Below are positions 32,017 to 58,928 of a stretch of DNA of 63,913 nucleotides, one piece after another (the stretch's first letter is position 1; each line of letters opens with the position of its first letter). Location: NCBI GenBank assembly GCA_964480875.1, contig CAYZRT010000004.1:1-63913 (forward strand). The letters are read 5' to 3'. A program made the translations under genes and the position numbers. The notes beneath the pieces are model-generated. The model was not told the DNA's origin. It made no database searches and saw only the letters and a list, made by a program, of their open reading frames with translations. Origin of the DNA: an uncultured Smithella sp. Its GTDB lineage: Bacteria > Desulfobacterota > Syntrophia > Syntrophales > Smithellaceae.

Positions 32017-32253
32017 TCGTCGTACATGAATTGCTGGCCGAATCGCATCATGTATGGGGTTGATGACGATGCAGAGAGAAGAGGTTCGATTCGATGAATT
32101 CTTCAAGTCCAGATTGCTACAACGCGTACTTCTTCGGTTATTTTCATAAGTCAACTTGTTGCCATGTCCCCTATGAACTTTTCTTTTTCTACCATTGCTT
32201 CTGCGAGGGTTATTTAGAAAATATTAATGATGATTTTTCCGGAGGTATTGCCT

Positions 32254-33012
32254 ATGCCTAAGATTGTCAATCATGACGAGTACCGTCGGGAACTTCTGAC
32301 AAAATCCTTCAATTTGTTTACCCGTAAAGGGTATACCAATATAACCATGGATGAGATCGCGGCGGAAATCGGCGTATCCAAAGGGATTCTCTATCACTAT
32401 TTCCCCTCCAAGGAAAAAATGCTCGCCCAGATGATTTCGTGGACCGGCTATCAAAACACGGAAGAGTATATCAGGCGGACAAGTTCTGTGGAAAAAGTCC
32501 GTGATCGTTTTGACATGATTGTGGATTACTGGAGAGAAAAGGGCAAACTTTATGAAAGCATCCTGCTGCTGGCGTTTGACATGTACCGCAACGCGGACAT
32601 CGAGCACTGGAAGCCGCTCTATGATCTTTTTGCCGAACGCTATACGGCTGGAATGTCGGAACGACTAAACATTTCGCGGCAGTTTGCTCACTCCATATTC
32701 ATTTATTTTCTTGGCCTTTCTTTCCATTCAGTGGCAACCGGCAGCGACACCAAAGAATACAACAAACAAATAGATTTCCTTGACGTCATATTCAGGCCTC
32801 TCATTGTGGACGCGCCCGAAGATCTGGATAAAGCCGCGCAAAAATTCAAGGACGTGTACAAAACCTTTCTGGCCGATTTGCCGGTTGTCAAAAAAGGCTC
32901 CGTTCAAAAGAAAATAAAAAATACAAAGACAGTAAAAGCTGAAAAAAAGATTAAAAGAGTTGAACCAAAACAAAAAAAATTAATCTCGAATAAATCGAAT
33001 AAAAAACAATAA
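32254..33012 (+). CDS. TetR/AcrR-family transcriptional regulator with a Lys-rich C-terminal tail
   Basis: The HTH region is FTRKGYTNITMDEIAAEIGVSKGILYHYFPSKE. GGAGG lies 8 nt before the ATG. The tail is KKGSVQKKIKNTKTVKAEKKIKRVEPKQKKLISNKSNKKQ. Confidence 0.85.
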   Translation: MPKIVNHDEYRRELLTKSFNLFTRKGYTNITMDEIAAEIGVSKGILYHYFPSKEKMLAQMISWTGYQNTEEYIRRTSSVEKVRDRFDMIVDYWREKGKLYESILLLAFDMYRNADIEHWKPLYDLFAERYTAGMSERLNISRQFAHSIFIYFLGLSFHSVATGSDTKEYNKQIDFLDVIFRPLIVDAPEDLDKAAQKFKDVYKTFLADLPVVKKGSVQKKIKNTKTVKAEKKIKRVEPKQKKLISNKSNKKQ

Positions 33013-33029
33013 CCGGTAAAGGAGGCACC

Positions 33030-34271
33030 ATGAATAAAACACTCGATGAGTTGTTTGTTTACCCGAAAGAGTTGGTGGATGAAGAGTCGAAACGTGTAAT
33101 TCACCTCGTAAGACAATGGGCCGATAAGGAAATCATATCTAAACGTCAGGAGTATCGTGAAAATTACGAAAAGCTCTTTATCGAAACCAGAAAATCGCTC
33201 AATCTTACCATTGGTTTGCAAAGGCTCACTTTGCCGGAAGAACATGGCGGTTTTGGGTGGCATAATCCCGCCAGCACACCGGGTATCGTTTCCGTTCTTA
33301 CCGAAATCGGGCGTGCCGATGCCGCTATCGGCGTCACCTCCGCGATAAAATGCGTAATCTTTGCCGCAACCACTTTATTGCCTCATTTGGACAAAGCCGT
33401 TTGCGATGTACTGGCGCCGATTTACTGCGCCGATGAACTGAAAACCCCGTCCCTCATTCTTCCCGGCATGGGCACGGCCGGCGAGGACACTCCGCTGTTT
33501 TTAGGCAGATCAATTCTGGCCACAGTGGAACCAGATGGGGACGGATACGCGGTCAACGGAAAAAATATGAGGCCTTTAAACAGCGGCGCCGTGGCCGATC
33601 TTTTCTGTGTGGTCTGCGCCGACAAGTTGGGACGCCCCTGTGTCGCTCTGGTTCCCGGCGACGACAGAAATGTCTTGCGCGGCAAAACGCTACTGGAGAC
33701 CGGTCTCAACGCCAGCGCCAACTGCGATGTCAGTTTTAATCATGTCAGAATTCCCAAGTCCTATCTGATTGACCGCGACGGCGTGGTTGAGCAAATTTAC
33801 ACCTGGCTCAACCTGCTGCTCGGCGGCGTGAGCGTCGGCGTGGGAATGAATTTCTTCGAAATCGTCACGGACTGGTCCGAAACCAGAACCATCAAGGGTG
33901 GAACCATGATGAAAGAAAATCCCCTTTGTGCTTCCGTTCTCGCTGACGTGGCCGATGAAGTCTTCACCGCCAGGCTTCTTCTTTACAATCTGGCGCACAT
34001 TATGTCCAAGCCGGATGACTGGGGATACAGCGGGTCCCAGCGGGTTTACACGTTTTCGCAGATCATCGGTTCGCAGGTACAGCAGAAAATTATGCGGGCG
34101 ATTAACAGAGGGTTGGAACTGATGGGTTCCGCCGGTTATTCCAAAGAGTGGCATGTGGAAAAACAATGGCGTGATATCAAAACCATCCAGTCGTACCTTT
34201 GCGGAGTCGGTGCGGAAGCGCCGGTAAAAATGGATACGGCGCGGTTTTTCTTCGACTGCAAGCAGATTTAA
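33030..34271 (+). CDS. Acyl-CoA dehydrogenase family protein (non-canonical)
   Basis: ACAD-like throughout (EEHGGFGW..., WRDIKTIQSYLCG). The position of the MCAD-type YEGT glutamate reads SYLCG. Confidence 0.8.
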   Translation: MNKTLDELFVYPKELVDEESKRVIHLVRQWADKEIISKRQEYRENYEKLFIETRKSLNLTIGLQRLTLPEEHGGFGWHNPASTPGIVSVLTEIGRADAAIGVTSAIKCVIFAATTLLPHLDKAVCDVLAPIYCADELKTPSLILPGMGTAGEDTPLFLGRSILATVEPDGDGYAVNGKNMRPLNSGAVADLFCVVCADKLGRPCVALVPGDDRNVLRGKTLLETGLNASANCDVSFNHVRIPKSYLIDRDGVVEQIYTWLNLLLGGVSVGVGMNFFEIVTDWSETRTIKGGTMMKENPLCASVLADVADEVFTARLLLYNLAHIMSKPDDWGYSGSQRVYTFSQIIGSQVQQKIMRAINRGLELMGSAGYSKEWHVEKQWRDIKTIQSYLCGVGAEAPVKMDTARFFFDCKQI

Positions 34272-34285
34272 TAAGGAGGCCAATA

Positions 34286-35566
34286 ATGAAAAACTTCGAT
34301 GAATTCTCAAAACCGGAAGAATATATATCCCCGATGGATAAACACCTCCGCAGCGCGCTTCGTAACTGGGCAGACAAAGAGGTCATACCCTACCGGCGCA
34401 AATACGATGAAGACTGGAAAAACCATCACTTAATTGAACCGGCCTTCGACAAGCTCATGGGCAACAAGGGGCTGGGCATTCAGAAAGCGCTTTTCCCGCC
34501 GGAACTCGGCGGCTGGGGCATCGGACAGTCGGATTACGCCTTTACCGTGGCCTGCGCGCTGGCGGAAGAGGTCGGCAGGGCGGACACGGCTATGGCGGTC
34601 GCGTTTATGGTCACCTATTGGCCGCTTACGACAATACTTGTAACTCCTCATGTCAATTGGCGGCTGGCCCGGGAATTTGCCCCGATGTTCTGTGAAACCG
34701 AGAAAGCGGTTTTCGCGGCCAACGCCATGACGGAACCGCAGGGTGGAGCGGATATTGAAAATCTGGAAATTACCGGAGGCAAAACCATCCACACGACCGC
34801 CCGCCTCGATGGTGACGAATGGGTAATCAATGGGCACAAACTCTGGCCGACCAACACCGGCGGAGTGGCCAAACTTTTTGTCGTTCCCTGCACAACGAAG
34901 CTGGGCTCTACAGATCCCAACGACTTTGCCATGATATTTGTACCCGCCGATGCCAAAGGCGTAACCCAGGGGGGCCCTTACGAAAAAGCCGGTATGGCCG
35001 CCGACAAAAACGGCGACATCTGGTTTGAAGATGTAAGGGTTCCCAGCTGGTACCGGGCCCACGGACCGGGCATGGACGCGCAGGTCTTCCGCGAAATCAT
35101 TCCCTGGGGGCTGGTGGGAAGCATGGGATTTTTGTGCGGCGCAATGTTGAATCTCTACGAAATTCTCTACGATTTCGTTTCCACCAAAACCTATAAAAAC
35201 AGGCCATTGAAAGAAGACGACTGCGTCGCCGGAATCATCGGCCGCATCGCTGGCGATATCGACGTCTGCCGTATTCTGGCCTATGAAGCCGCCCGCATGG
35301 GCGACCGGCGTAACAAGCCCTATGGCTATCCGATTTATTCCGATGAAGTGGCCTGCAAAATGCGCAACCTCAAGGACTTTGTCTCCGACAGAGCGGTGGA
35401 TATTTTCGGCAAGGCCATGGATGTTCTGGGAACGTACGGCGCCGACCGCGAATACGATATCGAAAAACACTGGCGTGACATCAAAATTATTCAGTTATGG
35501 ATGGGCGGCAAGCAGCTCTGCCAGATGGAAGCAGCCCGGTATTTCTTCAATTGCAAGACATTATAG
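34286..35566 (+). CDS. Acyl-CoA dehydrogenase family protein (non-canonical)
   Basis: ATG 34286 follows AAGGAGG. AMTEPQGGADI is present, and WRDIKIIQLWMGG stands in place of the IYEGT block. Confidence 0.8.
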   Translation: MKNFDEFSKPEEYISPMDKHLRSALRNWADKEVIPYRRKYDEDWKNHHLIEPAFDKLMGNKGLGIQKALFPPELGGWGIGQSDYAFTVACALAEEVGRADTAMAVAFMVTYWPLTTILVTPHVNWRLAREFAPMFCETEKAVFAANAMTEPQGGADIENLEITGGKTIHTTARLDGDEWVINGHKLWPTNTGGVAKLFVVPCTTKLGSTDPNDFAMIFVPADAKGVTQGGPYEKAGMAADKNGDIWFEDVRVPSWYRAHGPGMDAQVFREIIPWGLVGSMGFLCGAMLNLYEILYDFVSTKTYKNRPLKEDDCVAGIIGRIAGDIDVCRILAYEAARMGDRRNKPYGYPIYSDEVACKMRNLKDFVSDRAVDIFGKAMDVLGTYGADREYDIEKHWRDIKIIQLWMGGKQLCQMEAARYFFNCKTL

Positions 35567-35577
35567 GAGACCGAACC

Positions 35578-36015
35578 ATGCAAGAAGGCAATAAGGGAGT
35601 GATTGATTTAACCGACCGCGTGCTGAAGGAGCTGCTCAAAAAGCCGGGCTTCAAGGAGAATGTCCGCACTGTGCTCCAGAATATCGATCCGGAATCGAGC
35701 CGCAGGCTGGTCAGGACGATGATGTGGCATGATCCGGAGTTTTTTCTGGGCGTACTGGGCGCTGTTCCCTCCATTGCCAATTCCTTGGTTCAATGCGTGG
35801 ACGAACTGCTCATTCAGCTCAACGAAAAATTTTCGCCGCAGCTGCTTCACGACTTTATGAAGTCGATTGTTTTGTCGCTGGACAAGGAAACTCTGGAAAG
35901 TATTGTCCGCAACGGGAAAGTGCTGGGAACGCAATTGTGGGTCATTGCGGAAGAAACATACAATGAACAGCAGGCTTCCAATACTGATACGGAGGGAGAT
36001 GAACATGGAAAATAA
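35578..36015 (+). CDS. Hypothetical helical protein, paralog 1 of 3
   Basis: 146 aa. It shares a ~75-aa module (NIDPESS...WHDPEFFLGVLGAVPSIANS...LNEKFSPQLLHDF...LDKETLESIV) with the next gene. Confidence 0.6.
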   Translation: MQEGNKGVIDLTDRVLKELLKKPGFKENVRTVLQNIDPESSRRLVRTMMWHDPEFFLGVLGAVPSIANSLVQCVDELLIQLNEKFSPQLLHDFMKSIVLSLDKETLESIVRNGKVLGTQLWVIAEETYNEQQASNTDTEGDEHGK

Positions 36016-36664
36016 CACCGTGATGCCCGCCGAAGGTGGCGTAATGAAAGAGGTGTTAAGCACACCCTTCGTGAAAGATTTGATTCGCAGTAATTTGCAG
36101 AACATCAAACCGGACAAAACGCATCCGGTGGTTAACGCTCTGATCTGGCAGGATCCGGAATTCATTCTGTCCGTTCTGGGATCGATTCCTACGGTCGTCA
36201 ATTCTTGCACCGGCGCTCTGGCGGAAGCGGGAAAACAAATCAATGAGAAATTTTCACCGGTACTGCTCAGGGATTATGTCGGGAGCATTCTGAAAGATAT
36301 TGACACGGAAGAATTGAAAGCCCTCGTTGAAGCTTACGTCGACCTTGGGAAAAATCTCTGGGAGGTTTCGCCGGAATTCAGGGAAATGGCGGGTCAAGCT
36401 TTAAAAGAAGATGCGCCGCCGCTGATCGGCAGAGGAATCAGTTCGGCCTGCCGCTTCGTTAATGAGGTCAGTAAAGAAGACCCGCGCGTGGTGAGCAAAT
36501 TTGTTTCCGATGTCGTTGCCAATATTGACGGCGATGAGTTTAAGGACGCGACTCATACGATTGTCAACGCGGTCCTTGATCAGAAGCTTCATTTGTTTTC
36601 CTGGACGTGGCAGTTGTTGTGCAAAAGGATGAAGAAGAAAAGTAAGAGAAAGGGTCATTATTGA
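36005..36664 (+). CDS. Hypothetical helical protein, paralog 2 of 3
   Basis: The start (36005, or 35999) overlaps the upstream stop, and GGAGGG lies upstream. The shared module is NIKPDKT...WQDPEFILSVLGSIPTVVNS...INEKFSPVLLRDY...IDTEELKALV. Confidence 0.6.
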   Translation: MENNTVMPAEGGVMKEVLSTPFVKDLIRSNLQNIKPDKTHPVVNALIWQDPEFILSVLGSIPTVVNSCTGALAEAGKQINEKFSPVLLRDYVGSILKDIDTEELKALVEAYVDLGKNLWEVSPEFREMAGQALKEDAPPLIGRGISSACRFVNEVSKEDPRVVSKFVSDVVANIDGDEFKDATHTIVNAVLDQKLHLFSWTWQLLCKRMKKKSKRKGHY

Positions 36665-36688
36665 AGATATTGAATGGAGGGATATTCC

Positions 36689-37972
36689 ATGAGTAATGTT
36701 GAAAAACCGGTTCAACCGGATAATGCCGCCGACCTTACCGGCAGTGTCGTGTGGAAAACAGTTAAAACTCCCATGATCAGAAAATTGATTACTGCCGCAG
36801 TTCATGAGGCACTAAAGGACTGGTCGGGCGACAGCAAGCTCAAGGCACGGATGTCCTCAAGCGTGGAAAATGTCGTGGAAAGTGTTTTGTCCACGGCAGA
36901 CAAAGCCGACGGCAAGATGGGCGTCGAACTGGGGAAGCTTTTAACCGCTTTTGCCCGGGAGACGAACGAGGAATTGAAGAAAGGATTAAAGGTCATTGAA
37001 GATCCCCGTCAGACCGCCATTAATGATTTTATCGTCAACACCGATTTTGGTGAGGTTAAGGAGATGATGGACCGCTCCGAAGGGCCTGTCATTCAAAACC
37101 TTGACATTGCCGTCGAATGCATCTGGAGATATCCGGCCAAAGTCGCATCGATACTGGCCTCACTCGTTTCCGCAGGCAATATCTCCGTCAAGAGCATTTC
37201 CATTATTATTAAGTCGCTTCTTGATAATCTCGGTCCGGATCTAACGGCCGATATTCTTCTTTCCATCGTGAGGGAGCTCAATGGCAAGGAAATAGGCAAG
37301 CTAACCAACAATGTTTCCGAACTGCTCCGTCGTATGCACACGGGGAGCCTCCTGCTGTCCAGGGGCGGCAAGTCACTTTTTGAAATTTACCTGACCAACC
37401 TTCTCAAGGATGCCGTCAGAGAGATAGATCCCGTCATTTTTACTAAAGCGCGCATCGCTCTGGCCGAAGACGGCGAAACCGTCGCCAAGTCCCTGGCGGA
37501 AGTGATGAGTGAAAATGAAAAAATGCTTTTTGCATCCGTGGCCGCCTATGCCGCTCTGGAGAATCCGAAGATCAGGGCCCGGGCCATTAAAATGAACCTT
37601 TATGAAAATGCCGATCAGGAAAAATTTATCGAAGCGGCAGCCAGCGGTATTTCCGATCTGGACACACAGGTCATGGCGGAGAATTTCAATGCAGCGCTCA
37701 GAATTATAAACAATATTCATGAAGCCAAGCCGGAGCTCTTTACGACTCTTCTGCGCGGATTTGCCGATTCCGTGGATGAAGATGAGCTGCAAAAAACGGC
37801 CCAATGGCTTGTTCCGGAGATTGTCGGCACTTTTAAAACGCTGGCTCCTGCGGCAATGCCTTCATTAATCAACGGATTCTGCGACATGGTTAAGGCAGAT
37901 CAAAGCGAGGAAGCCAGAAAGGCTATGGAAAACCTTAGATCTGTAATTTTAGCAGACGGAGGTGCGAAATGA
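36689..37972 (+). CDS. Hypothetical helical protein, distant paralog 3 of 3
   Basis: 427 aa from ATG 36689 (GGAGGG upstream). It is all-helical by composition with no Cys motifs, and shows weaker resemblance to the shared module (NLDIAVECIWRYPAKVASILASLVSAGN...). Confidence 0.55.
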   Translation: MSNVEKPVQPDNAADLTGSVVWKTVKTPMIRKLITAAVHEALKDWSGDSKLKARMSSSVENVVESVLSTADKADGKMGVELGKLLTAFARETNEELKKGLKVIEDPRQTAINDFIVNTDFGEVKEMMDRSEGPVIQNLDIAVECIWRYPAKVASILASLVSAGNISVKSISIIIKSLLDNLGPDLTADILLSIVRELNGKEIGKLTNNVSELLRRMHTGSLLLSRGGKSLFEIYLTNLLKDAVREIDPVIFTKARIALAEDGETVAKSLAEVMSENEKMLFASVAAYAALENPKIRARAIKMNLYENADQEKFIEAAASGISDLDTQVMAENFNAALRIINNIHEAKPELFTTLLRGFADSVDEDELQKTAQWLVPEIVGTFKTLAPAAMPSLINGFCDMVKADQSEEARKAMENLRSVILADGGAK

Positions 37973-39102
37973 TGAACGACTGGAAAGAAATTGTCAACAC
38001 AACAGAAAATTCCTACGTAAAAAAATGGAAAGAAAAAGGCAAGGCCGTCATTGGTTATCCATGTACCTTCGTTCCCGATGAAATTATTTATGCCGCCGAT
38101 ATTCTGCCTTATCGTTTAAGAGGAACGGGAACAACTTCTTCTTCCATCGGAGACACTTATTTCGGACCGGTGATCTGCAGTTTTCCCAAATGCGTTCTGC
38201 AACTTGCCGGAGAAGGAAAGTTTAATTTCCTTGACGGCACAATCATCGTGCCGGGATGCGATTCCATGAGAAGGCTGGATGAATGCTGGCGCAAGGCGGG
38301 CGAAGATTATCCGGGCATTGTCCCGGGATTCTTTCACTACTTCGGCGTACCCCATAAAGTGACTGACTATTCTCTGAAATGGTTTCATGAAGAAACGATA
38401 AAACTGCAGGGAAAAATCGAGGAACATTTCCACGTCAAGATAACCGATGAAGCCCTGAAAGGCGCCATACGAGTTTATAACGAAAGCAGAAAACTGCTCA
38501 TCCAGTTGGACAAGCTGCGCATCAAAGATGACGTTGTCATGACCGGAGAAGACGCGTTGATTATTATCCTGGCCAGCGCCGCCATGCCACGCGACGAATT
38601 CAACAAAATGCTTCGCAAAACCTTGTCGCAACTGGAAACGAAGAAAGAAACGATCAAGGGTAAAAAAAGGCTGATGCTGGTGGGATCCGCAAGTGACGAT
38701 CCGGAGTTCATGAAGGTTATCGAGGATTGCGGAGCCGTCATCGTCGCCGACACCATGTGTTTCGGTTCCCGCTCTTACAGTGATCTTACCGAGGAAGATG
38801 GTGATCCGCTGTTTGCTTTGGCTAAACGTTATCTCAATCATGCCTATTGTCCGCGAATGTTCGGATACTACAAGGAAAGATTAAAGTACATCATGGTCCG
38901 GGCGAAAGAAGCCAAAGTGGACGGGATTATTCTGCAGAATATCCGTTTCTGCGATCTGCACGGTTCGGAAAACGGCATTTTCGAAAGAGATCTGGAAAAA
39001 GAAGGCATCCCCTGCATGAGAATGGAGCGCGAGTACGGTCCGCTGACCGAGTCGGGACGTGTAAAAATGCGGGTTGACGCATTTCTGGAAAGAATTTCTT
39101 AA
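37969..39102 (+). CDS. BCR/HAD-family subunit, small type (BcrC/BadD/HgdB-like)
   Basis: 377 aa, with an ATGA overlap with the upstream gene. Conserved Cys contexts: GPVICSFPKC, VPGCDSMRRL, ADTMCFGSRSY and IRFCDLHG. Confidence 0.85.
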   Translation: MMNDWKEIVNTTENSYVKKWKEKGKAVIGYPCTFVPDEIIYAADILPYRLRGTGTTSSSIGDTYFGPVICSFPKCVLQLAGEGKFNFLDGTIIVPGCDSMRRLDECWRKAGEDYPGIVPGFFHYFGVPHKVTDYSLKWFHEETIKLQGKIEEHFHVKITDEALKGAIRVYNESRKLLIQLDKLRIKDDVVMTGEDALIIILASAAMPRDEFNKMLRKTLSQLETKKETIKGKKRLMLVGSASDDPEFMKVIEDCGAVIVADTMCFGSRSYSDLTEEDGDPLFALAKRYLNHAYCPRMFGYYKERLKYIMVRAKEAKVDGIILQNIRFCDLHGSENGIFERDLEKEGIPCMRMEREYGPLTESGRVKMRVDAFLERIS

Positions 39103-39118
39103 ACAAGGAGGATTTGCC

Positions 39119-39352
39119 ATGGAACAGCAGGATAAAATCGCCGTTGACGTTATTAAGAATATTGCCATTGATTCATCTCGGGTTCTGGCTGAAAGGCAGC
39201 GCGCCATCGATGCCCTGACCCTTTTTCATGAAGAAGCCCTTCCGGCGCTGAAAGAAATTGAAAAAATAGTTGACGTAAACATTCTTAAGGAAAGAGCCAG
39301 ACTCTATATTCAGAGAATCAAAGAAGGCGCTGTTTTGAGCATGAATGCTTAG
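39119..39352 (+). CDS. Small (77 aa) helical protein with a HEAT-like repeat
   Basis: AAGGAGG precedes ATG 39119. ERQRAIDALTLFHEEALPALKEI resembles a PBS-lyase/HEAT-type repeat. Confidence 0.4.
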   Translation: MEQQDKIAVDVIKNIAIDSSRVLAERQRAIDALTLFHEEALPALKEIEKIVDVNILKERARLYIQRIKEGAVLSMNA

Positions 39353-39455
39353 TAAGTTTGAATTTGTTTTATGCGATGAAACAAATTCATTAACGCACTT
39401 ACCCCGCACAGGCGGGACTTGTCCCGTTTATCGGGGTTAAAGGAAGGATAATAGG

Positions 39456-40859
39456 ATGAAGAAGGAGACTAGAGAATACAATTTTGACTGGAATATGTGG
39501 ACGATTCTGGAAAATGCCTCCAAGACGGCGGATGGTTCCCGCAAGGAATACGAAACGCTTCTCCCGTATATTCCTCACTATCGCAACGTACTGGATGCTT
39601 TTGCCAAGCACGGAGAACCGGGCATCCTTTTTTTGAAGATTATCGCCAAATACGCCAATGATTGCGTGCGCGCTCATATCGAGGGCAGAAAAACAGCGGG
39701 GGTAACATTCTGTTTTGCCACGCCCATTTTGTACGCTTTCAACATTCAGCCCATTGCGCTGGAACCGTGGAGCGTTCTGGCTACGGTTGTTTTGAAAAGG
39801 GGAACCGCCGAATTTCTGGATTATTGCAGCGAACTCGGTTTTACCGAAACATCCTGTTCATCGCAAAGAGGATCGCTGGGTGCTTATCTGTGCGGCTTGG
39901 CGACAAGCCTCGATTTTGTTGTTTATGACTCGCCGGGCATATGCGATACCAATGCCAACTCATTTTCGTTTGCCGCCTCCTATCTGGATATTCCCTTCTA
40001 TCAGTTAAACTACCCTTACACCCTGACTGATGAACGGGCGACGGAATATCACCGGGCGGATTTCAGGGGGCTGATAAAGTTTCTGGAAGAACAGACGGGC
40101 AGAAAGATGGATATGGATAGGCTGCGCGACGTCATGAATGAATCCAGAAAACAGGATGACCTGACCTGTGAATTGCTGGATTTACAGAGGCTCAGGCCCT
40201 GTCCCATGCCGCCGATATACGAGTTGATGCTTTACGGCGGGCGTTTCATGATGAACGGCACCCGGGAATACACGCTACTGCTGGAGTCCATGCTGAAGCA
40301 CACCCGAAAGAAAGCCGGGGAAGGCAAGGCCGGAACGACATCCGGCGAAGAAAAAGCCCGGGGTCTTTTCTGTTATATCGACCATTACACAACCGACGGA
40401 CGGCTTTGGGATTTCCTCGATCAACGCAATATTTCGCATATGGGGTCCATCCTGTTCAACTTCTGGCAGAAAGACAGTTTATACGCCGGGGGCAAGGAGG
40501 ACGAAGGCTATCGTTTTGATGACGAACACCTTGACGCCATCATTGATTCCCTTGCCGCCCAGATGTCCAGAATGCCGATGGTCAAACAAATCAGAGGGCC
40601 TTATGACGCGCCGGGCATGTGGCTGGACGACACCCTGGGCGCGATAAACATTATGAAGCCGGATTTCGTTGTTTATATGGGAACGATGGGTTGCCGCAAT
40701 ACCTGGGGAATGGTGAAACCTTTTGTTCGCGATCTGGAAAAGCACGGCATTCCGACGCTTTATATTTACGCGGACAGTTTTGATGACCGGGTGCAATCAT
40801 GGCAAGCCGTGGCGGATAAGCTTGAAGAGTTTCTGAATGTTCGTAAAATAGTGACATGA
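39456..40859 (+). CDS. BCR/HAD-family subunit, large type (BcrB/BadE/HgdA-like), copy 1
   Basis: 467 aa. TETSCSSQRGSLGAYL, YDSPGICDTNANSF and YMGTMGCRNTWG. Confidence 0.85.
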   Translation: MKKETREYNFDWNMWTILENASKTADGSRKEYETLLPYIPHYRNVLDAFAKHGEPGILFLKIIAKYANDCVRAHIEGRKTAGVTFCFATPILYAFNIQPIALEPWSVLATVVLKRGTAEFLDYCSELGFTETSCSSQRGSLGAYLCGLATSLDFVVYDSPGICDTNANSFSFAASYLDIPFYQLNYPYTLTDERATEYHRADFRGLIKFLEEQTGRKMDMDRLRDVMNESRKQDDLTCELLDLQRLRPCPMPPIYELMLYGGRFMMNGTREYTLLLESMLKHTRKKAGEGKAGTTSGEEKARGLFCYIDHYTTDGRLWDFLDQRNISHMGSILFNFWQKDSLYAGGKEDEGYRFDDEHLDAIIDSLAAQMSRMPMVKQIRGPYDAPGMWLDDTLGAINIMKPDFVVYMGTMGCRNTWGMVKPFVRDLEKHGIPTLYIYADSFDDRVQSWQAVADKLEEFLNVRKIVT

Positions 40860-40942
40860 ACGATGGTTGTTTGAGCCGGTTCACCATCTGAATTTTCTGC
40901 AGTAGAAAAACCGGCGTTTCCTTGTAAAGAAGGAGAATAAAC

Positions 40943-42346
40943 ATGAAAAGAGAAACTAGAGAATATAATTTTGACTGGAGCCTCTGGAATATTCTGGAAA
41001 ACGCGGCAAAAACATGTGACGGATCCCAAAAAGAATATGAAACTCTTCTTCCTTTCATACACCACTACAGGGATGTCTTGGATGCTTTTGTGAAACAGGG
41101 GGAACCTGGTGTTCTCTTTTTGAAGTTACTGGCCCGTTACATGAAAGACTGTGTCACGGCAAAGGAAAAGGGCAAGAAAGTTTCCATGACGACATTTTGT
41201 CTGGCTATTCCTATTCTTTATGCTTTTAATATCCAACCTCTGGCGCTGGAAGTGTGGTCTGTTCTGGGCACCATTGTACTCAAGCGAGGCACTGCGGAAT
41301 TTCTGGATTTCTGCTGTGAATTGGGATTTACGGAAACATCCTGCTCCGCCCAGCGTGGGGCTTTGGGTGCTTACCTGTCAGGTCTGGGCGTAAAACCGGA
41401 TCTCATCGTTTGTGACTCTCCAGGTGTCTGCGACACGAATGCCAATTCTTTCGCTTTTGCGGCAGCGTATCTTGATTTGCCGTTTTATCAATTAAATTAC
41501 CCGTCCACGTTAACAGAAGGTCGTTCGGAAAGATACCACCGTGAAGACTACAGAGGATTGATAAAATTTCTGGAAGAACAGACCGGCCAGAAACTCGACA
41601 TCGACAAACTAGGGGCAATTATAAGAGAAACTAAAAAGCAGGATGAACTTGCCTGTGAAATATTCGAAATGCTCAGGCTAAAACCTTCCCCTGTTCCCGC
41701 CATTTATGATCTTCTGCTCTATGGCGGAAAATTCATGATGGGTGGATTACCTCAATACACGGAACTACTGGAAGCGATGGTCCGAAAAGCAAAAGATAAT
41801 ATGCAAAAAGGAATCGCCGGAACATCATCAGGCAGGGAAAAGCTACGGGGGATGTTTTGCTATATTGATCATTATACAACAGATGCCCGGATGTGGAGTT
41901 TTCTGGATAGTAAAGATATCAGTCATCTTGGTTCCCTGCTCTTCGGCTTCTGGCAGACGGAAATGCCTTATGCGAAAGGCCGGGAAGCAGAAGGCTATGC
42001 CATTGATGACCGTTCTCTGGATTCGATGATTGATTCCATGGCCGCCATGAATTCCCGTATGCCCATGGTCAAACAAATCAGAGGGCCTTATGATATGCCG
42101 GAGATGTGGCGCGAAGATGTTATGGGTATGGTAAAGTTAACAAAGCCGGATTTCGTGGCCTATATGGGAACCATCGGCTGCCGCAACACCTGGGGCATGA
42201 TTAAATTGCTGGTCAGGGATCTGGAGAATGCCGGTGTCCCGACCATTGTTCTTTATGGAGACGGCTTTGACGACCGGGTACAGTCGTGGGAATCCATAAG
42301 CGATAAAATATCTGAATTCATACATGTCAGGGGGATATTAAAATGA
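40943..42346 (+). CDS. BCR/HAD-family subunit, large type, copy 2 (tandem paralog)
   Basis: 467 aa, collinear with copy 1 with no indels and roughly two thirds identical by eye. TETSCSAQRGALGAYL, CDSPGVCDTNANSF and YMGTIGCRNTWG. Confidence 0.85.
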   Translation: MKRETREYNFDWSLWNILENAAKTCDGSQKEYETLLPFIHHYRDVLDAFVKQGEPGVLFLKLLARYMKDCVTAKEKGKKVSMTTFCLAIPILYAFNIQPLALEVWSVLGTIVLKRGTAEFLDFCCELGFTETSCSAQRGALGAYLSGLGVKPDLIVCDSPGVCDTNANSFAFAAAYLDLPFYQLNYPSTLTEGRSERYHREDYRGLIKFLEEQTGQKLDIDKLGAIIRETKKQDELACEIFEMLRLKPSPVPAIYDLLLYGGKFMMGGLPQYTELLEAMVRKAKDNMQKGIAGTSSGREKLRGMFCYIDHYTTDARMWSFLDSKDISHLGSLLFGFWQTEMPYAKGREAEGYAIDDRSLDSMIDSMAAMNSRMPMVKQIRGPYDMPEMWREDVMGMVKLTKPDFVAYMGTIGCRNTWGMIKLLVRDLENAGVPTIVLYGDGFDDRVQSWESISDKISEFIHVRGILK

Positions 42347-43131
42347 TTGTAGCGGGATGTGATGTGGGCTCTCTGACCGCCAAGGCGGTCATCATGAACG
42401 GCTCTATTCTGGGGTCTGCGGTTATCAAGGCGAAAGCCAAACCGGAAGAATCAGCCTCCAAAGTTATGAATCAGGCTCTGGCCAAAGCCGGTTTGAAAAT
42501 GGAGGATATTTCTTTCTGCGTCGGCACCGGATACGGCAGAAATAAAATTCCCTTTGTCAATGTAACGATGTCGGAAATTGCCTGTCACGGCAGGGGAGCG
42601 CAATGGATCATGCCATCCGTTAGGACGGTTATTGACATCGGAGGGCAGGATTGCAAAGCTATGCGTCTGGACAAGGATGGAAATGTTCTTAAGTTTTCTA
42701 CCAATGACAAGTGTGCTGCCGGAACAGGAAGGTTTCTGGAGGTCATGGCCAAACTGCTGGGAGTGAGTCTTGATGAACTGGGAACCATATCGGAAAACGC
42801 CAAGGACCCTCTGTCGCTTTCGTCCACCTGTACGGTCTGGGTACAGGCCGAAGTGATTCACCACCTCAATTCCCAAAAACCCATAGAAGATATTGCCGCG
42901 GCGATCAACCGGGCAATGGCCATTCGTGTCGCCATTTTGGCCAATCAAGTCAGCGCCGAAAGGGACATCTGCATGTCGGGTGGAGTGGCGAAAAACAAAG
43001 GCGTCGTTGCCGATTTGGAAAAGGTGCTGGGAATGAAGATTAAAAAGCTGAAATATGATCCTCAAATCGTCGGAGCGATAGGCGCAGCAGTCATCGCCGG
43101 GGAGAAAGCAAAAGGAGGGAAGGCATCATGA
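42343..43131 (+). CDS. BcrAD/BadFG/HgdC-type activase ATPase, copy 1
   Basis: MIVAGCDVGSLTAKAVIM, GTGYGR, EIACHGRGA, IDIGGQDCKA, NDKCAAGTGRFLE and GGVAKN. ATGA overlap with the upstream gene. Confidence 0.9.
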   Translation: MIVAGCDVGSLTAKAVIMNGSILGSAVIKAKAKPEESASKVMNQALAKAGLKMEDISFCVGTGYGRNKIPFVNVTMSEIACHGRGAQWIMPSVRTVIDIGGQDCKAMRLDKDGNVLKFSTNDKCAAGTGRFLEVMAKLLGVSLDELGTISENAKDPLSLSSTCTVWVQAEVIHHLNSQKPIEDIAAAINRAMAIRVAILANQVSAERDICMSGGVAKNKGVVADLEKVLGMKIKKLKYDPQIVGAIGAAVIAGEKAKGGKAS

Positions 43132-43907
43132 TCGTAGCCGGATGCGACGTCGGTTCTTTGACGGCCAAAGCCGTTATTATGAAAAATAATGAAATACTGG
43201 CAGCAAAAGTTATACGGGCGAAATCCCATCCGGAGGAGTCGGCGCGGAAAATCATGGCGCAGGCCCTGGAACAGGCTGGTCTTGTAATAGATGAAATATC
43301 CTATTGCGTGGGAACGGGCTACGGCCGGGCCAGCATTCCTTTCGCCACTTCGGTGGAATCGGAAATTGCCTGCCATGGCAGAGGCGCCCAGTGGCAGATG
43401 CCGTCGGTGAGAATGGTCATTGACATCGGCGGGCAGGATGCCAAGGCGATTCGTCTCGATGAAAAAGGAAACGTTATCAGATATGTTTATAATGATAAAT
43501 GCGCTTCCGGAACGGGCAGGTTTCTGGAGGTGATGGCCGACGCGTTAAGCATTGACATTACTGAAATGGGAGCTGTTTCCCTTTCTTCACAAAATCCGAT
43601 CAGCATTTCCAATCAATGCGTCATCTTCGCGGAAACGGAAATTGTTTCTTTAATCAATGAGGGCAAAAACATGGCCGATATTGTCAGCGGCTTGCACAAT
43701 GCATTAGCGCACAGGGTTGCCGCATTGGCCAAGGGAATTGAACTGCAGGAAGACATCGTCATGACGGGCGGCGTTGCCAAGAACGAAGGCATGTTTATGG
43801 CCCTGGAAAAAGCCCTGAGCAAAAAAATTAAAAATGTCGGAAGAGATCCTCAGGTCAATGGCGCCTTGGGAGCGGCTATTTTTGCCGCCGAACGTTTGAA
43901 AAATTAA
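43128..43907 (+). CDS. BcrAD/BadFG/HgdC-type activase ATPase, copy 2
   Basis: It has the same motif set (NDKCASGTGRFLE, GGVAKN). The first 18 aa are identical to copy 1, but the DNA differs at many synonymous sites. Confidence 0.9.
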   Translation: MIVAGCDVGSLTAKAVIMKNNEILAAKVIRAKSHPEESARKIMAQALEQAGLVIDEISYCVGTGYGRASIPFATSVESEIACHGRGAQWQMPSVRMVIDIGGQDAKAIRLDEKGNVIRYVYNDKCASGTGRFLEVMADALSIDITEMGAVSLSSQNPISISNQCVIFAETEIVSLINEGKNMADIVSGLHNALAHRVAALAKGIELQEDIVMTGGVAKNEGMFMALEKALSKKIKNVGRDPQVNGALGAAIFAAERLKN

Positions 43908-43920
43908 GGATGTAATTTTT

Positions 43921-44655
43921 ATGGAGCTTTTCGAACACACCTTCGATGAAATCCGAAATTTTTCAAGCAAAAGAAAAGGTAAATCCTGGATTCCGGAACC
44001 GTATGCCAAGCACTGGCCGGAAGGGGGCGGCAGAGACGTTGTTTTGTCTGATGACATGGGCGTGGAGCTGGGCAGTCCGCAGATGGAATCCTCTTCCTGC
44101 TTAATCTGGACGGAAAATTCCGATCTGGTTTGTGATCGCAAAATTACACTGATCGGTCCCGATGTTCCGTCGAGCTTAAACACGAGCTTGTCTTTCGGAA
44201 AGGTCGTTCTTGTTGCAGTCAGTGGATTTAATGAGGACAATACTTACGACCGTTACAAGGAAATGGAATCTGTCAGATATGCCATCGATCTGAAAGGATA
44301 CATGATCAGGGCCGTATCCCAGTATCAGCGGGAATGGAGCCGTATCAGCCGAGAGGCCGTGCAAAACGGTTTTTCTTTTGAGGTGCTGGGTCAGGCTCTG
44401 CGGAATGAATATATGAAGAAAGATTTTATTCATTCCGTCGAATTTCTTTTTGTTACGTCAAATTCGGAAGATGTGCGCGAACTCCAGGAAATAACAAAAA
44501 ATGTGGGAAGGACAATCAATGCCCTGGATAAAATGCTCAACGAAATAAATTCAGATTGTGACGAGTGCGAGTATAACGATGTTTGCGATGAGGTGGCGGA
44601 ACTTAAAAGCATGAGAAAATTACGTAATGGAAAAAGGATGAACCAACATGACTAA
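43921..44655 (+). CDS. Truncated acetyl-CoA synthase (AcsB/CdhC) middle-domain-like protein
   Basis: MGVELGSPQ..., KITLIGPDV, WSRISREAVQNGFSFEVLGQAL, VEFLFVTSNSEDVRELQEI and a terminal CDECEYNDVC align by eye with Moorella AcsB (VEMGGNRTP..., IEVIGPDI, WLRVSKDAVAKGFRFKNYGEIL, VQVTIFTDEAKVKEYMEV, CVLCQSFAPNHVC) as I recall that sequence. Confidence 0.6.
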   Translation: MELFEHTFDEIRNFSSKRKGKSWIPEPYAKHWPEGGGRDVVLSDDMGVELGSPQMESSSCLIWTENSDLVCDRKITLIGPDVPSSLNTSLSFGKVVLVAVSGFNEDNTYDRYKEMESVRYAIDLKGYMIRAVSQYQREWSRISREAVQNGFSFEVLGQALRNEYMKKDFIHSVEFLFVTSNSEDVRELQEITKNVGRTINALDKMLNEINSDCDECEYNDVCDEVAELKSMRKLRNGKRMNQHD

Positions 44656-45415
44656 AAAAACAAAGACGATTGCTTTGTGCGGAAAAGGCGGGGTGGGAAA
44701 GACGTCGGTATCCGCGCTGATGGTAAAGAATCTTACTCAAAGAAAAGACATCAAGGTGCTGGCCATCGATGCCGATCCTGCCATAGGCCTTTGCACGGCA
44801 TTGGGAATACAAATCAAAAAAACCGTGGATGATATCAGAAATGATTTAATCAATTCTATTAGGAAAGGAGCAAGCCAGGATAAAGCCGCAACGCTGAACA
44901 GGCTGGATTATGAGCTTTTTGATGCCCTGACGCAATTCAAAAATATCGCTTTTCTGGCCATAGGACGGCCGGAATCGGAAGGTTGCTTCTGCAAGGTCAA
45001 CTCTCTTTTGAAAGATATCATTCAGGATCTGGCGAAAAATTTTGACGTGGTGCTCATCGACGGAGAAGCCGGCGTCGAACAAATCAACCGCAGAGTGATG
45101 AAAACGGTCGATCATCTGATTATGATATCCGACACTTCTGCCAAGGGGATTCATGTTGCCCATACCATCAAGCATCTGGCCGAGGACAACAAAGCCGTAA
45201 ATTATAAAAGCATGGGAATGATTTTGAACCGCGTCAGAAATGAGAGCGAAGTACACGATATCCGAAAGAACATCCCCATCAATATTCTGGGATGGCTGCC
45301 GGAGGACGATCTGATCAGGGAATTCGATTTTTACGGCAGGTCTTTCCTTGATTTTCCGGATACGGCCGAAGCGGGCAAAAAAGTAAACGTCATGATAGAC
45401 GCCATGAATTTATAA
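44648..45415 (+). CDS. cooC: CooC/AcsF-type P-loop maturation ATPase
   Basis: The P-loop is IALCGKGGVGKTS, followed by LAIDADP, the CxC metal motif in PESEGCFCKV, and VLIDGEAGVEQ. The start overlaps the upstream gene by 8 nt. Confidence 0.85.
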   Translation: MTKKTKTIALCGKGGVGKTSVSALMVKNLTQRKDIKVLAIDADPAIGLCTALGIQIKKTVDDIRNDLINSIRKGASQDKAATLNRLDYELFDALTQFKNIAFLAIGRPESEGCFCKVNSLLKDIIQDLAKNFDVVLIDGEAGVEQINRRVMKTVDHLIMISDTSAKGIHVAHTIKHLAEDNKAVNYKSMGMILNRVRNESEVHDIRKNIPINILGWLPEDDLIREFDFYGRSFLDFPDTAEAGKKVNVMIDAMNL

Positions 45416-45737: not shown

Positions 45738-47096
45738 ATGTCTCAAATGCAAACTACTTTTCCACGCTCTTTGCCTCTGCTCGGTGGTCTCTTAGGAAGC
45801 ACCACTTGCGGCATGCTGCTTTATGCTTTCAGCGTTTTCATCAAACCCCTTCAGGCTCAATTTGGTTGGACTGTTCCCGAAGTTGCTCTGGCCTACGCCA
45901 TCATCTGTCTTGTTTTCGGTCTGATGACTTTTCCTGCCGGAAGACTTAGCGATAAATTCGGTCCGCGCAAAGTTGTTCTTTTGGGCGGTTTAATTATGGC
46001 CTTTGGATTTTTCATGGTTTCCACCATCGCCCCACCCGATCCTGCCGTTATCGCCGCCGGTGGTGATGCCGCAAAAGCCGCCGGTAAAACCCAACTCTAT
46101 CTTCTCTATCTCTATTATGGAATTATTGCCGGATTCGGCGGCGGCTGTGTTTATCTGCCACCGATTGCGACGGCTCCCAAATGGTGGCCGGACCGCCGTG
46201 CATTAGCCACCGGCTTCGCTGTTGTCGGACTGGGCCTTGGTTCGTTTATCATGGCGCCGCTTGCTACCGTTATGATCAATCATTTTGGCAGCGCGCTTCC
46301 CGTTTTTAAATACGTGGGTGTTGCCATGGGCATCATGGTTGTCTGCGCCGCTATCTGCCTGAAAGTGCCACCGGCAGGCTACAAGCCTGCAGGCTGGAAT
46401 CCACCCGCCCCGATTGGCGTCGACGCTCACAAATCCTTCCGTGACTACACCCATGATGAGACCAAACACTCTGCCCAGTTCTGGTTTCTCTGGATTGCTT
46501 ATTTCTGTGGCTCCTTTGCCGGCCTGATGGTTATCGGCCTGATTGCCAAACATGGAATCGATGCCATGACCATTGCCTACAAGGTTAAGGAAGGACTGGA
46601 CGCGGCTGCCACTGTCCCGCCGGATGTTGCCAAAAGTATTGCCATGGCGGCGGCAGGTGCGCCCAGCGCTTTGGCGATTTTCAACGCTTTGGCGCGTATT
46701 CTGATTGGACCCCTGGCGGACAAGATAGGCACCAAAAAGATTTTCGTTACCCTGTTCACCCTTCAGGCGATTGCCATGCTTCTTCTGTTTCCGGCGGGAA
46801 AGACTACCGCGCTGCTGGCCGTTTGCGCCGGCCTGATTGGCTGGAACTACGGCGCCATGTTCACCCTGTTCCCTTCGACCCTGCTTACCTATTACGGCCC
46901 GACAGCGCAGGGTTCCAACTATGGATTGCTTTTCACCGCCTGGGGCGTTGCCGGTTTCTTCGGACCTTATCTGGGCGGAAAAATACAAGCCATGACCGGC
47001 TCCTTTTTTGTTCCGTTCGTGATTTCCGCGATAGTGCTGATGATTGCGGTTGTCATTCTTGCCGCGATTAAAGCGCCGGAGAAGAAGCATGCTTGA
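45738..47096 (+). CDS. MFS transporter (oxalate/formate antiporter-like subfamily)
   Basis: 452 aa with about 12 TM segments. The [12 protein letters not shown] loop motif follows TM2. Confidence 0.85.
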
Positions 47097-47366: not shown

Positions 47367-48020
47367 TTAGCGTTCAGAAAGAAGATATCTCAGGATGATA
47401 TCTTCCGTTTCGTTGATGAGTCTCTTTTTTTCAATACCGGTATTGTCAAATTTGATTTGATGCATCATCTCTTCGGCAAGTTTAAGCAGGATAAACGCGG
47501 CCGCTTCAAAATCGGATACGCGAATGTATTTTTTATAATTTTGCATATACGAAACCAGCAAATCGATCACTTTCTTTTCTTCGGTGCGGCGTATTTTTTC
47601 TATTTCATTATCGAGTAAGGCTATTGCGAGAATTTGCTTGAGAAGCCTGTAGTTGACTTTGTATTCGGAGAGAACTTCTTTGATGATGAGATGCGCCAGA
47701 TTTCTTGCTTCCTTATACGTATCAGCAGGATTTTGATAAAATTTGAATTCAAAATTAAGCAATACTTTTTCAGAAATATTGCGAAAAATACGTTCAATGA
47801 TTTCGGCAAAAACCTCCTTTTTGTTGTTAAAATAACTATAAAACGTTCCCGTGGCAACTTTTGCTACAGCGGCAATTTCTAAAGCGTTTGTCTGATAATA
47901 TCCCTTTTCGGTGAATAATTTTGTTGCGGATTTGACGATTTTTTCCTTTGTTTCAATGCCCCTCGATTGCTTGGGAATACGGGCTTTATTGGTAGTTGAG
48001 ATAATTTTTGTTTTCTTCAC
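47367..48020 (-). CDS. TetR/AcrR-family transcriptional regulator
   Basis: The HTH region is FTEKGYYQTNALEIAAVAKVATGTFYSYFNNKKE. It is divergent from the ACAD operon. Confidence 0.9.
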   Translation of the reverse strand: MKKTKIISTTNKARIPKQSRGIETKEKIVKSATKLFTEKGYYQTNALEIAAVAKVATGTFYSYFNNKKEVFAEIIERIFRNISEKVLLNFEFKFYQNPADTYKEARNLAHLIIKEVLSEYKVNYRLLKQILAIALLDNEIEKIRRTEEKKVIDLLVSYMQNYKKYIRVSDFEAAAFILLKLAEEMMHQIKFDNTGIEKKRLINETEDIILRYLLSER

Positions 48021-48108
48021 TTTACAAAACCTCTTACAGGTAATGCGCGTTTATAAATACTTTTATATATGATTAACCAGTTTATTTTCAATGCTTTTTT
48101 TACCGGAA

Positions 48109-48166
48109 AATAATATGAAACATGTTTCATATTATTGTTGACATTATGAAGCATAAAGTATATATG
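48109..48166 (+). promoter_or_regulatory. Perfect 28-bp palindromic operator abutting a sigma70 promoter
   Basis: AATAATATGAAACA/TGTTTCATATTATT lies at 48109-48136. It is followed by TTGACA (48138-48143), 17 nt, then TATATG (48161-48166). Confidence 0.6.
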
Positions 48167-48324
48167 GTTTAAAGTGCCATCGTAATTTTAGTATTACAGC
48201 GGTTCTTTGTTAGGGCGAAGGCGATAAGAAATCTCACGGGATTTGGCCGGCATGCGCCAGGCGTAAACTTTTTATAATTCTTTTTATATTGAAAGAACAC
48301 TGACTATAGAAAGGGGAGGGTAGA

Positions 48325-50828: not shown

Positions 50829-50928
50829 GCGATAGATGAGAAACACCTCTTATCCGGACGACTGTCTTTTTAAATGAGAAAGTTTTCCGCATATCCTAAA
50901 TTAATTTTATATGCTCAGGAATAATCGC

Positions 50929-51696: not shown

Positions 51697-51731
51697 AAAT
51701 CCTAATCGTTGACCGGCAGGTAATTGCTGAT

Positions 51732-52415: not shown

Positions 52416-52482
52416 CTGAAAGGAAAAAAACTGGAAAACAAATTCACATGACCATGAACGTGGATTTATTAGGAGGCAATAA

Positions 52483-53742: not shown

Positions 53743-53823
53743 AGCTTGTGAATAAAGAAAGTAATGAGACCATAAAAAACTAGTATGGATTTCGGATTTC
53801 GCAACGTTGTCATTCTCTCTGTT

Positions 53824-53997: not shown

Positions 53998-54065
53998 GAC
54001 AAACGTGAAGAAAGAAGAGGCTGTACTGCTTAATTTTAAAATGCAACAAATAAAAGGATTATATT

Positions 54066-55688: not shown

Positions 55689-55899
55689 TTCGTGAGAATG
55701 GATATTTATGAATCTTTCAGCATCTGCTGAAAGCAATATAAAGCCGGAGACGAAATATAGACATGCACAGTAAAACTCTTTTTTCGCTCGACGAGTTGAT
55801 AACGATGGAGAGGAGATGATGTAATTTACCAGACATCTCTTCGGGACATCATTTCTGGATTTTTAAACCGGGATTTTTTAAAAAAAAGGGGGAGAAAAA

Positions 55900-58912: not shown

Positions 58913-58928
58913 GGTACGCCTATTGTCA

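Follow-up and report, generated by a model that had tools for sequence, protein, structure and literature searches.

The DNA analyzed here is a stretch of 63,913 nucleotides (contig CAYZRT010000004.1 of GenBank assembly GCA_964480875.1, forward strand; hereafter the window) from an uncultured Smithella sp. It carries the genes of an enzyme related to benzoyl-CoA reductase (BCR), 2-hydroxyacyl-CoA dehydratase (HAD) and double-cubane cluster protein (DCCP). Comparison with related loci and with characterized enzymes leads us to favor, with moderate confidence, a new family of ATP-dependent iron-sulfur reductases within this superfamily, which would employ two interchangeable large subunits, La and Lb, and is encoded in a 14-gene operon. 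Enzymes of the BCR/HAD/DCCP superfamily catalyze some of the hardest reductions and radical reactions of anaerobic biology, and to our knowledge substrates are known for only a handful of them. The family would bring together a double cubane of the BzdN type, a heterodimeric ATPase of independent evolutionary origin and accessory proteins unreported with such enzymes, namely a CooC-type chaperone, an acetyl-CoA synthase fragment and new helical proteins. Its carriers belong to groups that play a key part in the degradation of fatty acids and hydrocarbons under methanogenic and sulfidogenic conditions. The object of interest is this compact, conserved BCR-like family, uncharacterized and unannotated, with its new accessory components, rather than the count of one small subunit, two large subunits and two ATPases on which a sequence-only reading of the same DNA had centered.

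Core subunits and their predicted metal sites

The five open reading frames (ORFs) listed in the sequence-only reading (377, 467, 467, 262 and 259 aa) are all present and intact, and their HGD-D and BcrAD_BadFG domain matches bear out its assignment to the BCR/HAD superfamily. The genes of the core enzyme are:

37969..39102, + strand: S, small HGD-D subunit of the BzdN type, 377 aa (Pfam HGD-D, E 8.5e-89)
39456..40859, + strand: La, first large HGD-D subunit, 467 aa (Pfam HGD-D, E 1.6e-46)
40943..42346, + strand: Lb, second large HGD-D subunit and paralog of La, 467 aa (Pfam HGD-D, E 6.4e-44)
42343..43131, + strand: A1, activase/BcrAD-type ATPase, 262 aa (Pfam BcrAD_BadFG, E 1.5e-59)
43128..43907, + strand: A2, activase/BcrAD-type ATPase, 259 aa (Pfam BcrAD_BadFG, E 2.7e-56)

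La and Lb share 65% identity, A1 and A2 57%. The cysteine context NDKCA(A/S)GTGRFLE, noted earlier for the ATPases, is found in A1 and A2 (NDKCAAGTGRFLE, NDKCASGTGRFLE), and both proteins exceed the NCBIfam cutoff for CoA_E_activ, the acyl-CoA dehydratase activase domain. An exact-sequence look-up of S returned no record. For comparison, 84 loci, comprising related genome loci and further contigs, were annotated by phmmer with the window proteins as queries. The related-genome scan took one genome per species, ORFs were called mechanically, and the loci represent closest relatives only and are not phylogenetically independent; 69 of them are complete from S to the ATPases. All trees are neighbor-joining trees without support values. 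The same gene order in 69 genome loci, together with low ratios of nonsynonymous to synonymous substitution (dN/dS 0.03-0.17 against orthologs for each gene, indicating purifying selection), places the five-gene set far beyond chance.

For class I BCR, HAD and DCCP, both the architecture and the coupling to ATP have been described (PMC11971306), and BzdN holds its [8Fe-9S] double cubane via Cys36, Cys73, Cys100, Cys263, Cys293 and Cys327 (Fuchs et al. 2025, PMC11971306). BzdN is also the best PDB match of S (8s02_B, 8e-49), followed by HadC (8e-35), MbdN (1e-32) and DCCP (3e-27). All six BzdN ligands have a counterpart in S (C32, C70, C97, C264, C294 and C328), which thus carries the complete six-Cys signature of BZD-type class I BCR. 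These residues are 99-100% conserved across 75 loci, and the equivalents of BzdN Arg53, Arg267 and His330 are likewise conserved. In the alignment DCCP has Cys at all six S positions, whereas HadC has none at positions 32 and 264, so that S does not conform to the HAD-type β-subunit. From this pattern S is predicted to be an [8Fe-9S] double-cubane electron relay. Two side observations concern this site. MbdN of 3-methylbenzoyl-CoA reductase (PDB 9g87_B) has no Cys at the equivalents of 32, 264 and 294, which suggests that the [8Fe-9S] cluster may not be universal among class I BCRs. Moreover, a second BCR/HAD-type module, absent from the window, lies directly 3' of the CooC-like gene (see below) in one related locus (L005, 14497-19626) and in about 25 others (among them L008, L019, L029 and L079). 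This module encodes two subunits, one small (about 378 aa) and one large (about 505-520 aa), along with just one activase. All six double-cubane Cys recur in the small one, indicating that cluster type and ATPase number are not linked.

A profile of 29 large subunits shows four invariant residues, C134, C163, C413 and E103, which align with BzdO Cys95, Cys128, Cys380 and the catalytic Glu65 and are present in both La and Lb. C134, C163 and C413 are also predicted to supply the three-Cys catalytic [4Fe-4S] site known from HAD α-subunits. An AlphaFold2 model of La (predicted local distance difference test score, pLDDT, 83; predicted template-modeling score 0.88) gave query-normalized template-modeling (TM) scores of 0.70 to HadB, 0.72 to BzdO, 0.71 to MbdO and 0.66 to DCCP, at 16-19% identity. 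Foldseek returned HadB as the best match of the large subunit (TM 0.70/0.81).

A1 matches HadI (3.5e-64), MbdQ (2.6e-61) and MbdP (3e-38) in the PDB, and A2 gives the same order (2.2e-65, 6.8e-64 and 3.4e-34); in bits, both score about 210-224 against HadI and MbdQ and 122-135 against MbdP. ATP motifs are present in both proteins. Across about 70 related loci, conservation reaches 100% for the bridging Cys (C124 in A1, C125 in A2) and for the second cluster Cys (C163 and C164). In the tree the 69 first-position ATPases form one clade and the 68 second-position ATPases another, with the single activases of the neighboring module outside both, which indicates that the pair arose once, before the family radiated. 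Because A1 and A2 are nearer to HadI and MbdQ than to MbdP, this duplication is independent of the BzdP/Q and MbdP/Q split, and the two are not BzdP/BzdQ orthologs. A1 and A2 are predicted to be the halves of a heterodimer.

By homology with the characterized enzymes, the A1-A2 heterodimer would share one [4Fe-4S] cluster, and ATP hydrolysis would drive a ferredoxin-level electron to very low potential. The electron would then pass to the [8Fe-9S] double cubane of S, which would store and relay electrons. S would pair with La or Lb, where the open iron site of the three-Cys [4Fe-4S] cluster near Glu103 would act on the substrate. The flavoprotein partner would be the divergent acyl-CoA dehydrogenase (ACAD) pair encoded in the operon.

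Distribution of the family and duplication of the large subunit

The five core genes form the middle of a 14-gene same-strand unit (32227-45415), a wider context that the sequence-only reading had missed. Genes overlap or are tightly spaced across 33030-45415; the stop of Lb overlaps the A1 start, and the H3 stop overlaps the S start. The order is TetR, ACADa, ACADb, H1, H2, H3, S, m77, La, Lb, A1, A2, an acetyl-CoA synthase (ACS)-like gene and the CooC-like gene. It is unchanged in contigs with an 83% identical homolog and varied in far more distant contigs. For every protein the closest relatives come from Smithella, other Syntrophales or Desulfomonilia metagenome bins, and in the one-genome-per-species scan a Smithella sp. 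contig (L007) encodes a large subunit of 97% identity; this places the window in a Smithella-type member of the Thermodesulfobacteriota. The family is carried by Smithella, Syntrophaceae, Desulfomonilia, Desulfobacterales and some Bacillota and Leptospirales. Two cultured carriers, Desulfatibacillum alkenivorans DSM 16219 and Desulfocicer vacuolatum DSM 3385, make it experimentally tractable.

A HMMER search of 1.84 billion representatives found about seven full-length clusters, at 50% identity, that score high, after which scores drop to about 300 bits; the sister proteins at that level stem from Dehalococcoidia and Asgard archaeal bins and bear automatic names only. The sequence-only reading had looked to a clade of characterized enzymes with the same five-gene composition as what would overturn its claim of an unusual inventory, and no characterized relative was found. 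Nor did we find a paper on the family in literature on Smithella, Desulfatibacillum, HAD, BCR, CooC, the double cubane and MbdNOPQ. Leads from acetone-degrading and benzene-degrading sulfate reducers were dropped, as they concern other HAD/BCR-like proteins with no demonstrable link.

Exactly two ATPase genes occur in 68 of the 69 complete loci, and in the remaining locus one gene is split by a frameshift. The number of large subunits varies, with one in 47 loci and two in 22; that most related loci do without the second had been missed in the sequence-only reading. The ancestral and commonest make-up of the family is S, one large subunit, A1 and A2, and the second large subunit is a lineage-specific tandem duplicate. 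The large-subunit tree places one duplication in Desulfatibacillum and a separate, older one in Syntrophales/Desulfomonilia with later losses, suggesting that independent duplications took place at least twice. The position of m77 differs by locus (S-m-L-L, S-L-m-L, S-L-m or S-m-L), which is consistent with separate duplications and losses of the large subunit. We also observed that this position seems to track which large-subunit paralog was retained.

The accessory genes differ in how closely they accompany the core. H3 lies directly upstream of S in 72 of 74 loci, and the ACAD pair is found upstream together with H1 and H2 in 45 of 74. Where the ACAD pair is missing, 12 loci have a GMC-like FAD protein beside H3; pair and GMC-like protein never occur together. 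This GMC-like FAD oxidoreductase of about 440-470 aa is located beside TetR and H3 (for example L085, 5181-6527; L087, 5922-7340; L052, 3457-4776), and the lineages that have it in place of the ACAD pair include Desulfatibacillaceae, Bacillota and others. The ACS-like and CooC-like genes follow the core in 54 of the 69 complete loci. Exceptions are mostly contig ends, whereas Desulfatibacillum-type loci are genuinely without both genes nearby. Downstream of the cluster, the closest Smithella contigs (L001, 16933-21404) encode a GntR regulator, a BcrAD_BadFG pair (256 and 275 aa), a thiolase and an AMP-ligase; no HGD-D genes are adjacent to this extra ATPase pair.

Operon partners and the rest of the window

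Besides the core enzyme, the operon comprises the following genes:

32227..33012, + strand: TetR-family regulator at the head of the cluster (Pfam TetR_N in the ortholog of related loci L001-L003)
33030..34271, + strand: ACADa, divergent acyl-CoA-dehydrogenase-fold protein, 413 aa
34286..35566, + strand: ACADb, divergent acyl-CoA dehydrogenase, 426 aa (orthologs with Pfam N, M and C domains)
35578..36015, + strand: H1, helical protein, 145 aa, paralog of H2
36005..36664, + strand: H2, helical protein, about 219 aa (start codon approximate)
36674..37972, + strand: H3, all-helical protein, 432 aa, directly 5' of S
39119..39352, + strand: m77, 77-aa protein between S and La, with an AGGAGG ribosome-binding site upstream
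43921..44655, + strand: truncated ACS-like protein, 244 aa (Pfam CdhC, 6.5e-14)
44648..45415, + strand: CooC/AcsF-type P-loop metallochaperone ATPase, 255 aa (best PDB match CooC1, 3kje, 1.5e-19)

The TetR gene heads, or sits within, most related loci. ACADa reaches 50 bits with its best NCBIfam model against cutoffs of at least 470, and in its orthologs the N-terminal and middle ACAD domains are weak or absent, so it is probably the degenerate partner of a heteromeric ACAD pair. The best NCBIfam models of ACADb, glutaryl-CoA dehydrogenase (97 bits) and cyclohexane-1-carbonyl-CoA dehydrogenase (96 bits), are likewise far below their cutoffs.

H1 and H2, which co-occur with the ACAD pair, are 40% identical (E 3e-31), and H2 is weakly similar to H3 (25% identity, E 1e-5). 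Neither these three proteins nor m77 matched any Pfam or NCBIfam model, even at permissive thresholds. All 66 homologs of H3 are named hypothetical; its AlphaFold2 model (pLDDT 75) is all-helical with 20 helices, and Foldseek found no PDB match for it below E=1. With dN/dS values of 0.10-0.15, H3 is under purifying selection, as is m77 (0.02-0.12). The helical proteins may serve as scaffolds. The m77 gene had been overlooked in the sequence-only reading, and its ortholog is called as a gene in three related loci (L001, L004 and L005).

The ACS-like protein aligns with ACS residues ~332-503, that is the middle domain, and in addition has a C-terminal Cys motif. This motif, C213-x2-C216-x5-C222, is 100% conserved in 59 loci, and the protein ends where the A-cluster Cys motif starts. 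The remainder of the A-cluster domain is missing from it, the Ni-binding Cys-Gly-Cys included, and it scores 40-53 bits with NCBIfam ACS models (cutoffs 356-809); it is therefore not a member of ACS proper. Among the matches listed, its homologs are all stand-alone proteins of about 244 aa. The CooC-like protein, in contrast to its neighbor, has the defining features of its class, a deviant Walker A motif (GKGGVGKT) and a C113-F-C115 motif that aligns with the C-x-C of CooC1. C113 and C115 are 100% conserved. Our literature search found no paper linking CooC-type proteins to BCR/HAD enzymes.

Between 31.8 and 48.4 kb promoter-like sites are near the shuffled expectation, and terminator-like sites number 32 against 20.1 in shuffled sequence (sd 4.7), none of them delimiting the operon. 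An Rfam scan of the whole window gave no RNA family. Immediately downstream, at 45738-47096, a major facilitator superfamily transporter scores 363 bits with the NCBIfam model of the L-lactate transporter SfMCT, above the cutoff of 320 bits. As a substrate clue, pointing to a lactyl-CoA dehydratase, this gene was rejected because it is not conserved beside the cluster in related loci.

A second catabolic block at 47367-63250 encodes two regulators (TetR and GntR), another ACAD pair (393 and 441 aa), two short-chain dehydrogenases/reductases (SDRs), an AMP-forming ligase, two SCPx-type thiolases and an 828-aa fusion of ferredoxin, pyridine-nucleotide-disulfide-reductase and nitroreductase domains. 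The ORFs at 51639-52415 (258 aa) and 62441-63250 (269 aa), which come after the two SDR genes, have no Pfam match and are unrelated to each other. At the other end of the window two B12-binding radical SAM proteins (534-2081 and 6551-8005) flank a stretch of low G+C content (32-38%) that encodes UDP-galactopyranose mutase, glycosyltransferases, a DUF707 protein and a nucleotidyltransferase, genes of a glycan/lipopolysaccharide type. These upstream 31 kb of radical SAM and glycan genes were set aside as unrelated to the enzyme operon.

Choice of reaction and comparison with known enzymes

The BzdN-type S and the fixed, predicted heterodimeric ATPase make a stoichiometric two-electron reduction the more probable reaction, in preference to a redox-neutral dehydration. 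The sequence-only reading had argued that two distinct ATPase genes favor a BCR-like reductase. That argument gains from the pair being fixed and ancestral (68 of 69 loci, two pure clades) and from the six Cys of S, and loses from the ATPases being HadI/MbdQ-like. The preference is only moderate, since a six-Cys small subunit also occurs in the single-activase module and since the large subunits and ATPases resemble HadB and HadI no less closely than they do the BCR proteins. Several observations weigh against a reductase of acyl-CoA. As that module indicates, six Cys alone do not imply stoichiometric ATP use. Both ATPases are closest to HadI, the activator of a dehydratase. The large-subunit profile lies slightly nearer to HadB (1.7e-16) than to BzdO (3.9e-9), and the modeled La fold appears equidistant from the two. 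The mapping of Cys ligands onto HadBC and BCR structures, as proposed earlier, recovered the six BzdN Cys as well as the three Cys and the Glu of BzdO and HadB, and parted from BzdO at His131; an invariant Asn166 takes this place in the large subunits, so the BzdO catalytic site is not fully reproduced. Finally, lineages with the GMC-like flavoprotein lack the hint at an acyl-CoA substrate that the ACAD pair provides elsewhere. This pair, the TetR regulators and the downstream β-oxidation-type genes suggest that the substrate is most likely an acyl-CoA; judged from the sequences, it is not benzoyl-CoA.

The resemblance to HadB and HadI fits a HAD-type enzyme, in which one electron with catalytic ATP would bring about the redox-neutral radical dehydration or isomerization of an acyl-CoA, with the ACAD pair then reducing or oxidizing the enoyl-CoA product. 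HAD pathways usually have an ACAD beside the dehydratase, and the three-Cys and Glu site is common to HadB. We nevertheless regard this as somewhat unlikely, given the BzdN/DCCP-like six-Cys S in place of a HadC that lacks Cys at 32 and 264, and two ATPase genes, in two ancient clades, fixed in a family whose known HAD counterparts have one. The HAD equivalog models of NCBIfam are missed by a wide margin (HadB 54 and 43 bits against 750, HadC 157 against 700), and no CoA-transferase, 2-hydroxyacid dehydrogenase or electron-transferring flavoprotein (Etf) gene was recognizable in the conserved cluster or the window. A genuine BZD-type class I benzoyl-CoA reductase with a spare BzdO-like subunit is very improbable, even though the N/O/P/Q inventory is the same in kind and size. 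The earlier claim that the subunit sizes fit no paradigm does not survive comparison with BzdN (379 aa), BzdO (447 aa), MbdQ (269 aa) and MbdP (273 aa); S, L, A1 and A2 represent all four subunit types of class I BCR, and the extra large subunit is the sole departure in inventory from the BZD and 3-methylbenzoyl-CoA reductase (MBR) enzymes. BzdN is moreover the best structural relative of S (8e-49), and the Glu65 equivalent is kept along with both the six-Cys and the three-Cys site. Yet all bzd and bcr equivalog models score far below cutoff (bzdN 161 bits against 454, bzdO 19 against 449 or no match, bzdQ 200 against 380, bcrC 140 against 421, bcrB 24 against 487), identity of the large subunit to BzdO and MbdO is no higher than 16-18%, with Asn for His131, and the ATPases are not P/Q orthologs. 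The scanned window ORFs, a few of which lack a Pfam match, include no crotonase-family gene of the benzoyl-CoA pathway (dienoyl-CoA hydratase (Dch), Had or Oah) and no ferredoxin gene, and class II BCR is the type typically used by strict anaerobes such as the hosts (PMC11971306).

The CooC-like and ACS-like genes with their invariant Cys motifs, present in 54 of 69 loci, might instead speak for a DCCP-like reductase of a small or non-CoA substrate, whose special, possibly nickel-containing, metal site the two proteins would build or serve. The best NCBIfam model of S is indeed a double-cubane reductase (NF040772), the GMC-like flavoprotein replaces the ACAD pair in some lineages, and no CoA-related gene is fixed. 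However, S scores 186 bits against a cutoff of 350 (the large subunits 35-38), and an S-L layout in which the large subunit has lost the second sub-cluster is known from BzdNO and HadBC, both of them CoA-ester enzymes. The ACAD pair, TetR and neighboring β-oxidation genes point to acyl-CoA metabolism, and Desulfatibacillum-type loci have neither the CooC-like nor the ACS-like gene nearby, which together make such an enzyme decidedly unlikely. The partnership of CooC-like and ACS-like proteins could also mean that the enzyme needs a specially matured metal site, Ni or heterometallic or a chaperone-assisted double cubane, and that the helical proteins tether the flavoprotein for a hard CoA-ester reduction. 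We consider this unlikely; if true, it would be a new ATP-driven redox machine of syntrophic and sulfate-reducing Desulfobacterota acting on CoA esters derived from fatty acids or hydrocarbons. As for the second large subunit, it is hardly probable at all that it is a redundant recent duplicate without a distinct role, or that La and Lb pair with each other instead of with S. One large subunit does suffice in 47 of 69 loci, and the 23 fixed differences between the La and Lb clades of the Smithella group are mostly conservative, with all catalytic residues identical. On the other side, La and Lb are old (65% identity, synonymous sites saturated), both are retained in all 8 Smithella-group loci examined (7 related loci and the window) with dN/dS against orthologs of 0.04-0.09 (Lb 0.05-0.09), and duplication occurred independently at least twice. 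The fixed differences, moreover, cluster beside the cluster ligands (they include 104, 136, 140, 157 and 162), and loci with one large subunit allow only an S-L pair.

Returning to the favored reductase, the sequence record indicates that La and Lb are both functional, and they are plausible alternative catalytic partners of S. This extends the suggestion of alternative small-plus-large modules made in the sequence-only reading, and it fits the prevalence of single-L loci, the retention of catalytic residues in both copies, purifying selection and the ligand-adjacent fixed differences. We take the two partners to widen or split the substrate range. The natural La/Lb duplicate thus offers a built-in comparison for how the fold sets substrate specificity.

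Set against known systems, HadBC with HadI (PDB 3o3m, 4eht) shares with the family the three Cys and Glu, and provides the best matches of L (HadB) and of both ATPases (HadI); an ACAD gene lies nearby in both. HAD has one activator gene and a [4Fe-5S] cluster in HadC, which lacks two of the six Cys, whereas here two ATPases accompany a six-Cys S, and CoA-transferase and 2-hydroxyacid dehydrogenase genes were not found. DCCP with its reductase DCCP-R (Carboxydothermus hydrogenoformans, PDB 6eno, 7yyl) has the six-Cys [8Fe-9S] signature and activase-type, ATP-dependent electron delivery in common with the family. It is, however, a six-Cys homodimer with a homodimeric reductase, while the family has a six-Cys S, a large subunit that retains only three ligand Cys and a predicted heterodimeric ATPase. 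The plasmalogen synthase PlsA/PlsR represents fused double-activase enzymes, whereas A1 and A2 are separate single-domain proteins. With the CooC/AcsF and ACS system the cluster shares a CooC-like protein that keeps the P-loop and C-x-C and a neighbor that shows homology to the middle domain of ACS and, in the A-cluster region, to the first three Cys, but it contains no carbon monoxide dehydrogenase or ACS genes.

The nearest parallel in composition is the BZD/MBR type of class I BCR (BzdNOPQ of Aromatoleum sp. CIB, PDB 8s02; MbdONPQ of Thauera chlorobenzoica, PDB 9gai), which has the same four kinds and sizes of subunits: one small (about 380 aa), one large (about 445 aa) and two different ATPases of HgdC size. 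BzdNO has the six [8Fe-9S] Cys in common with S, and the three Cys and Glu of its [4Fe-4S]-OH2 site in common with L. The large subunits described here differ from BzdO and MbdO by their low identity, a ~60-aa N-terminal extension and the Asn at the position of His131. A1 and A2 stem from an independent duplication, the La/Lb paralog is additional, and benzoyl-CoA pathway genes were not found. Beyond anything that accompanies the BZD/MBR enzymes, the family has its own partners: H3, m77, the ACS-like and CooC-like proteins, and either the ACAD pair or the GMC-like flavoprotein.

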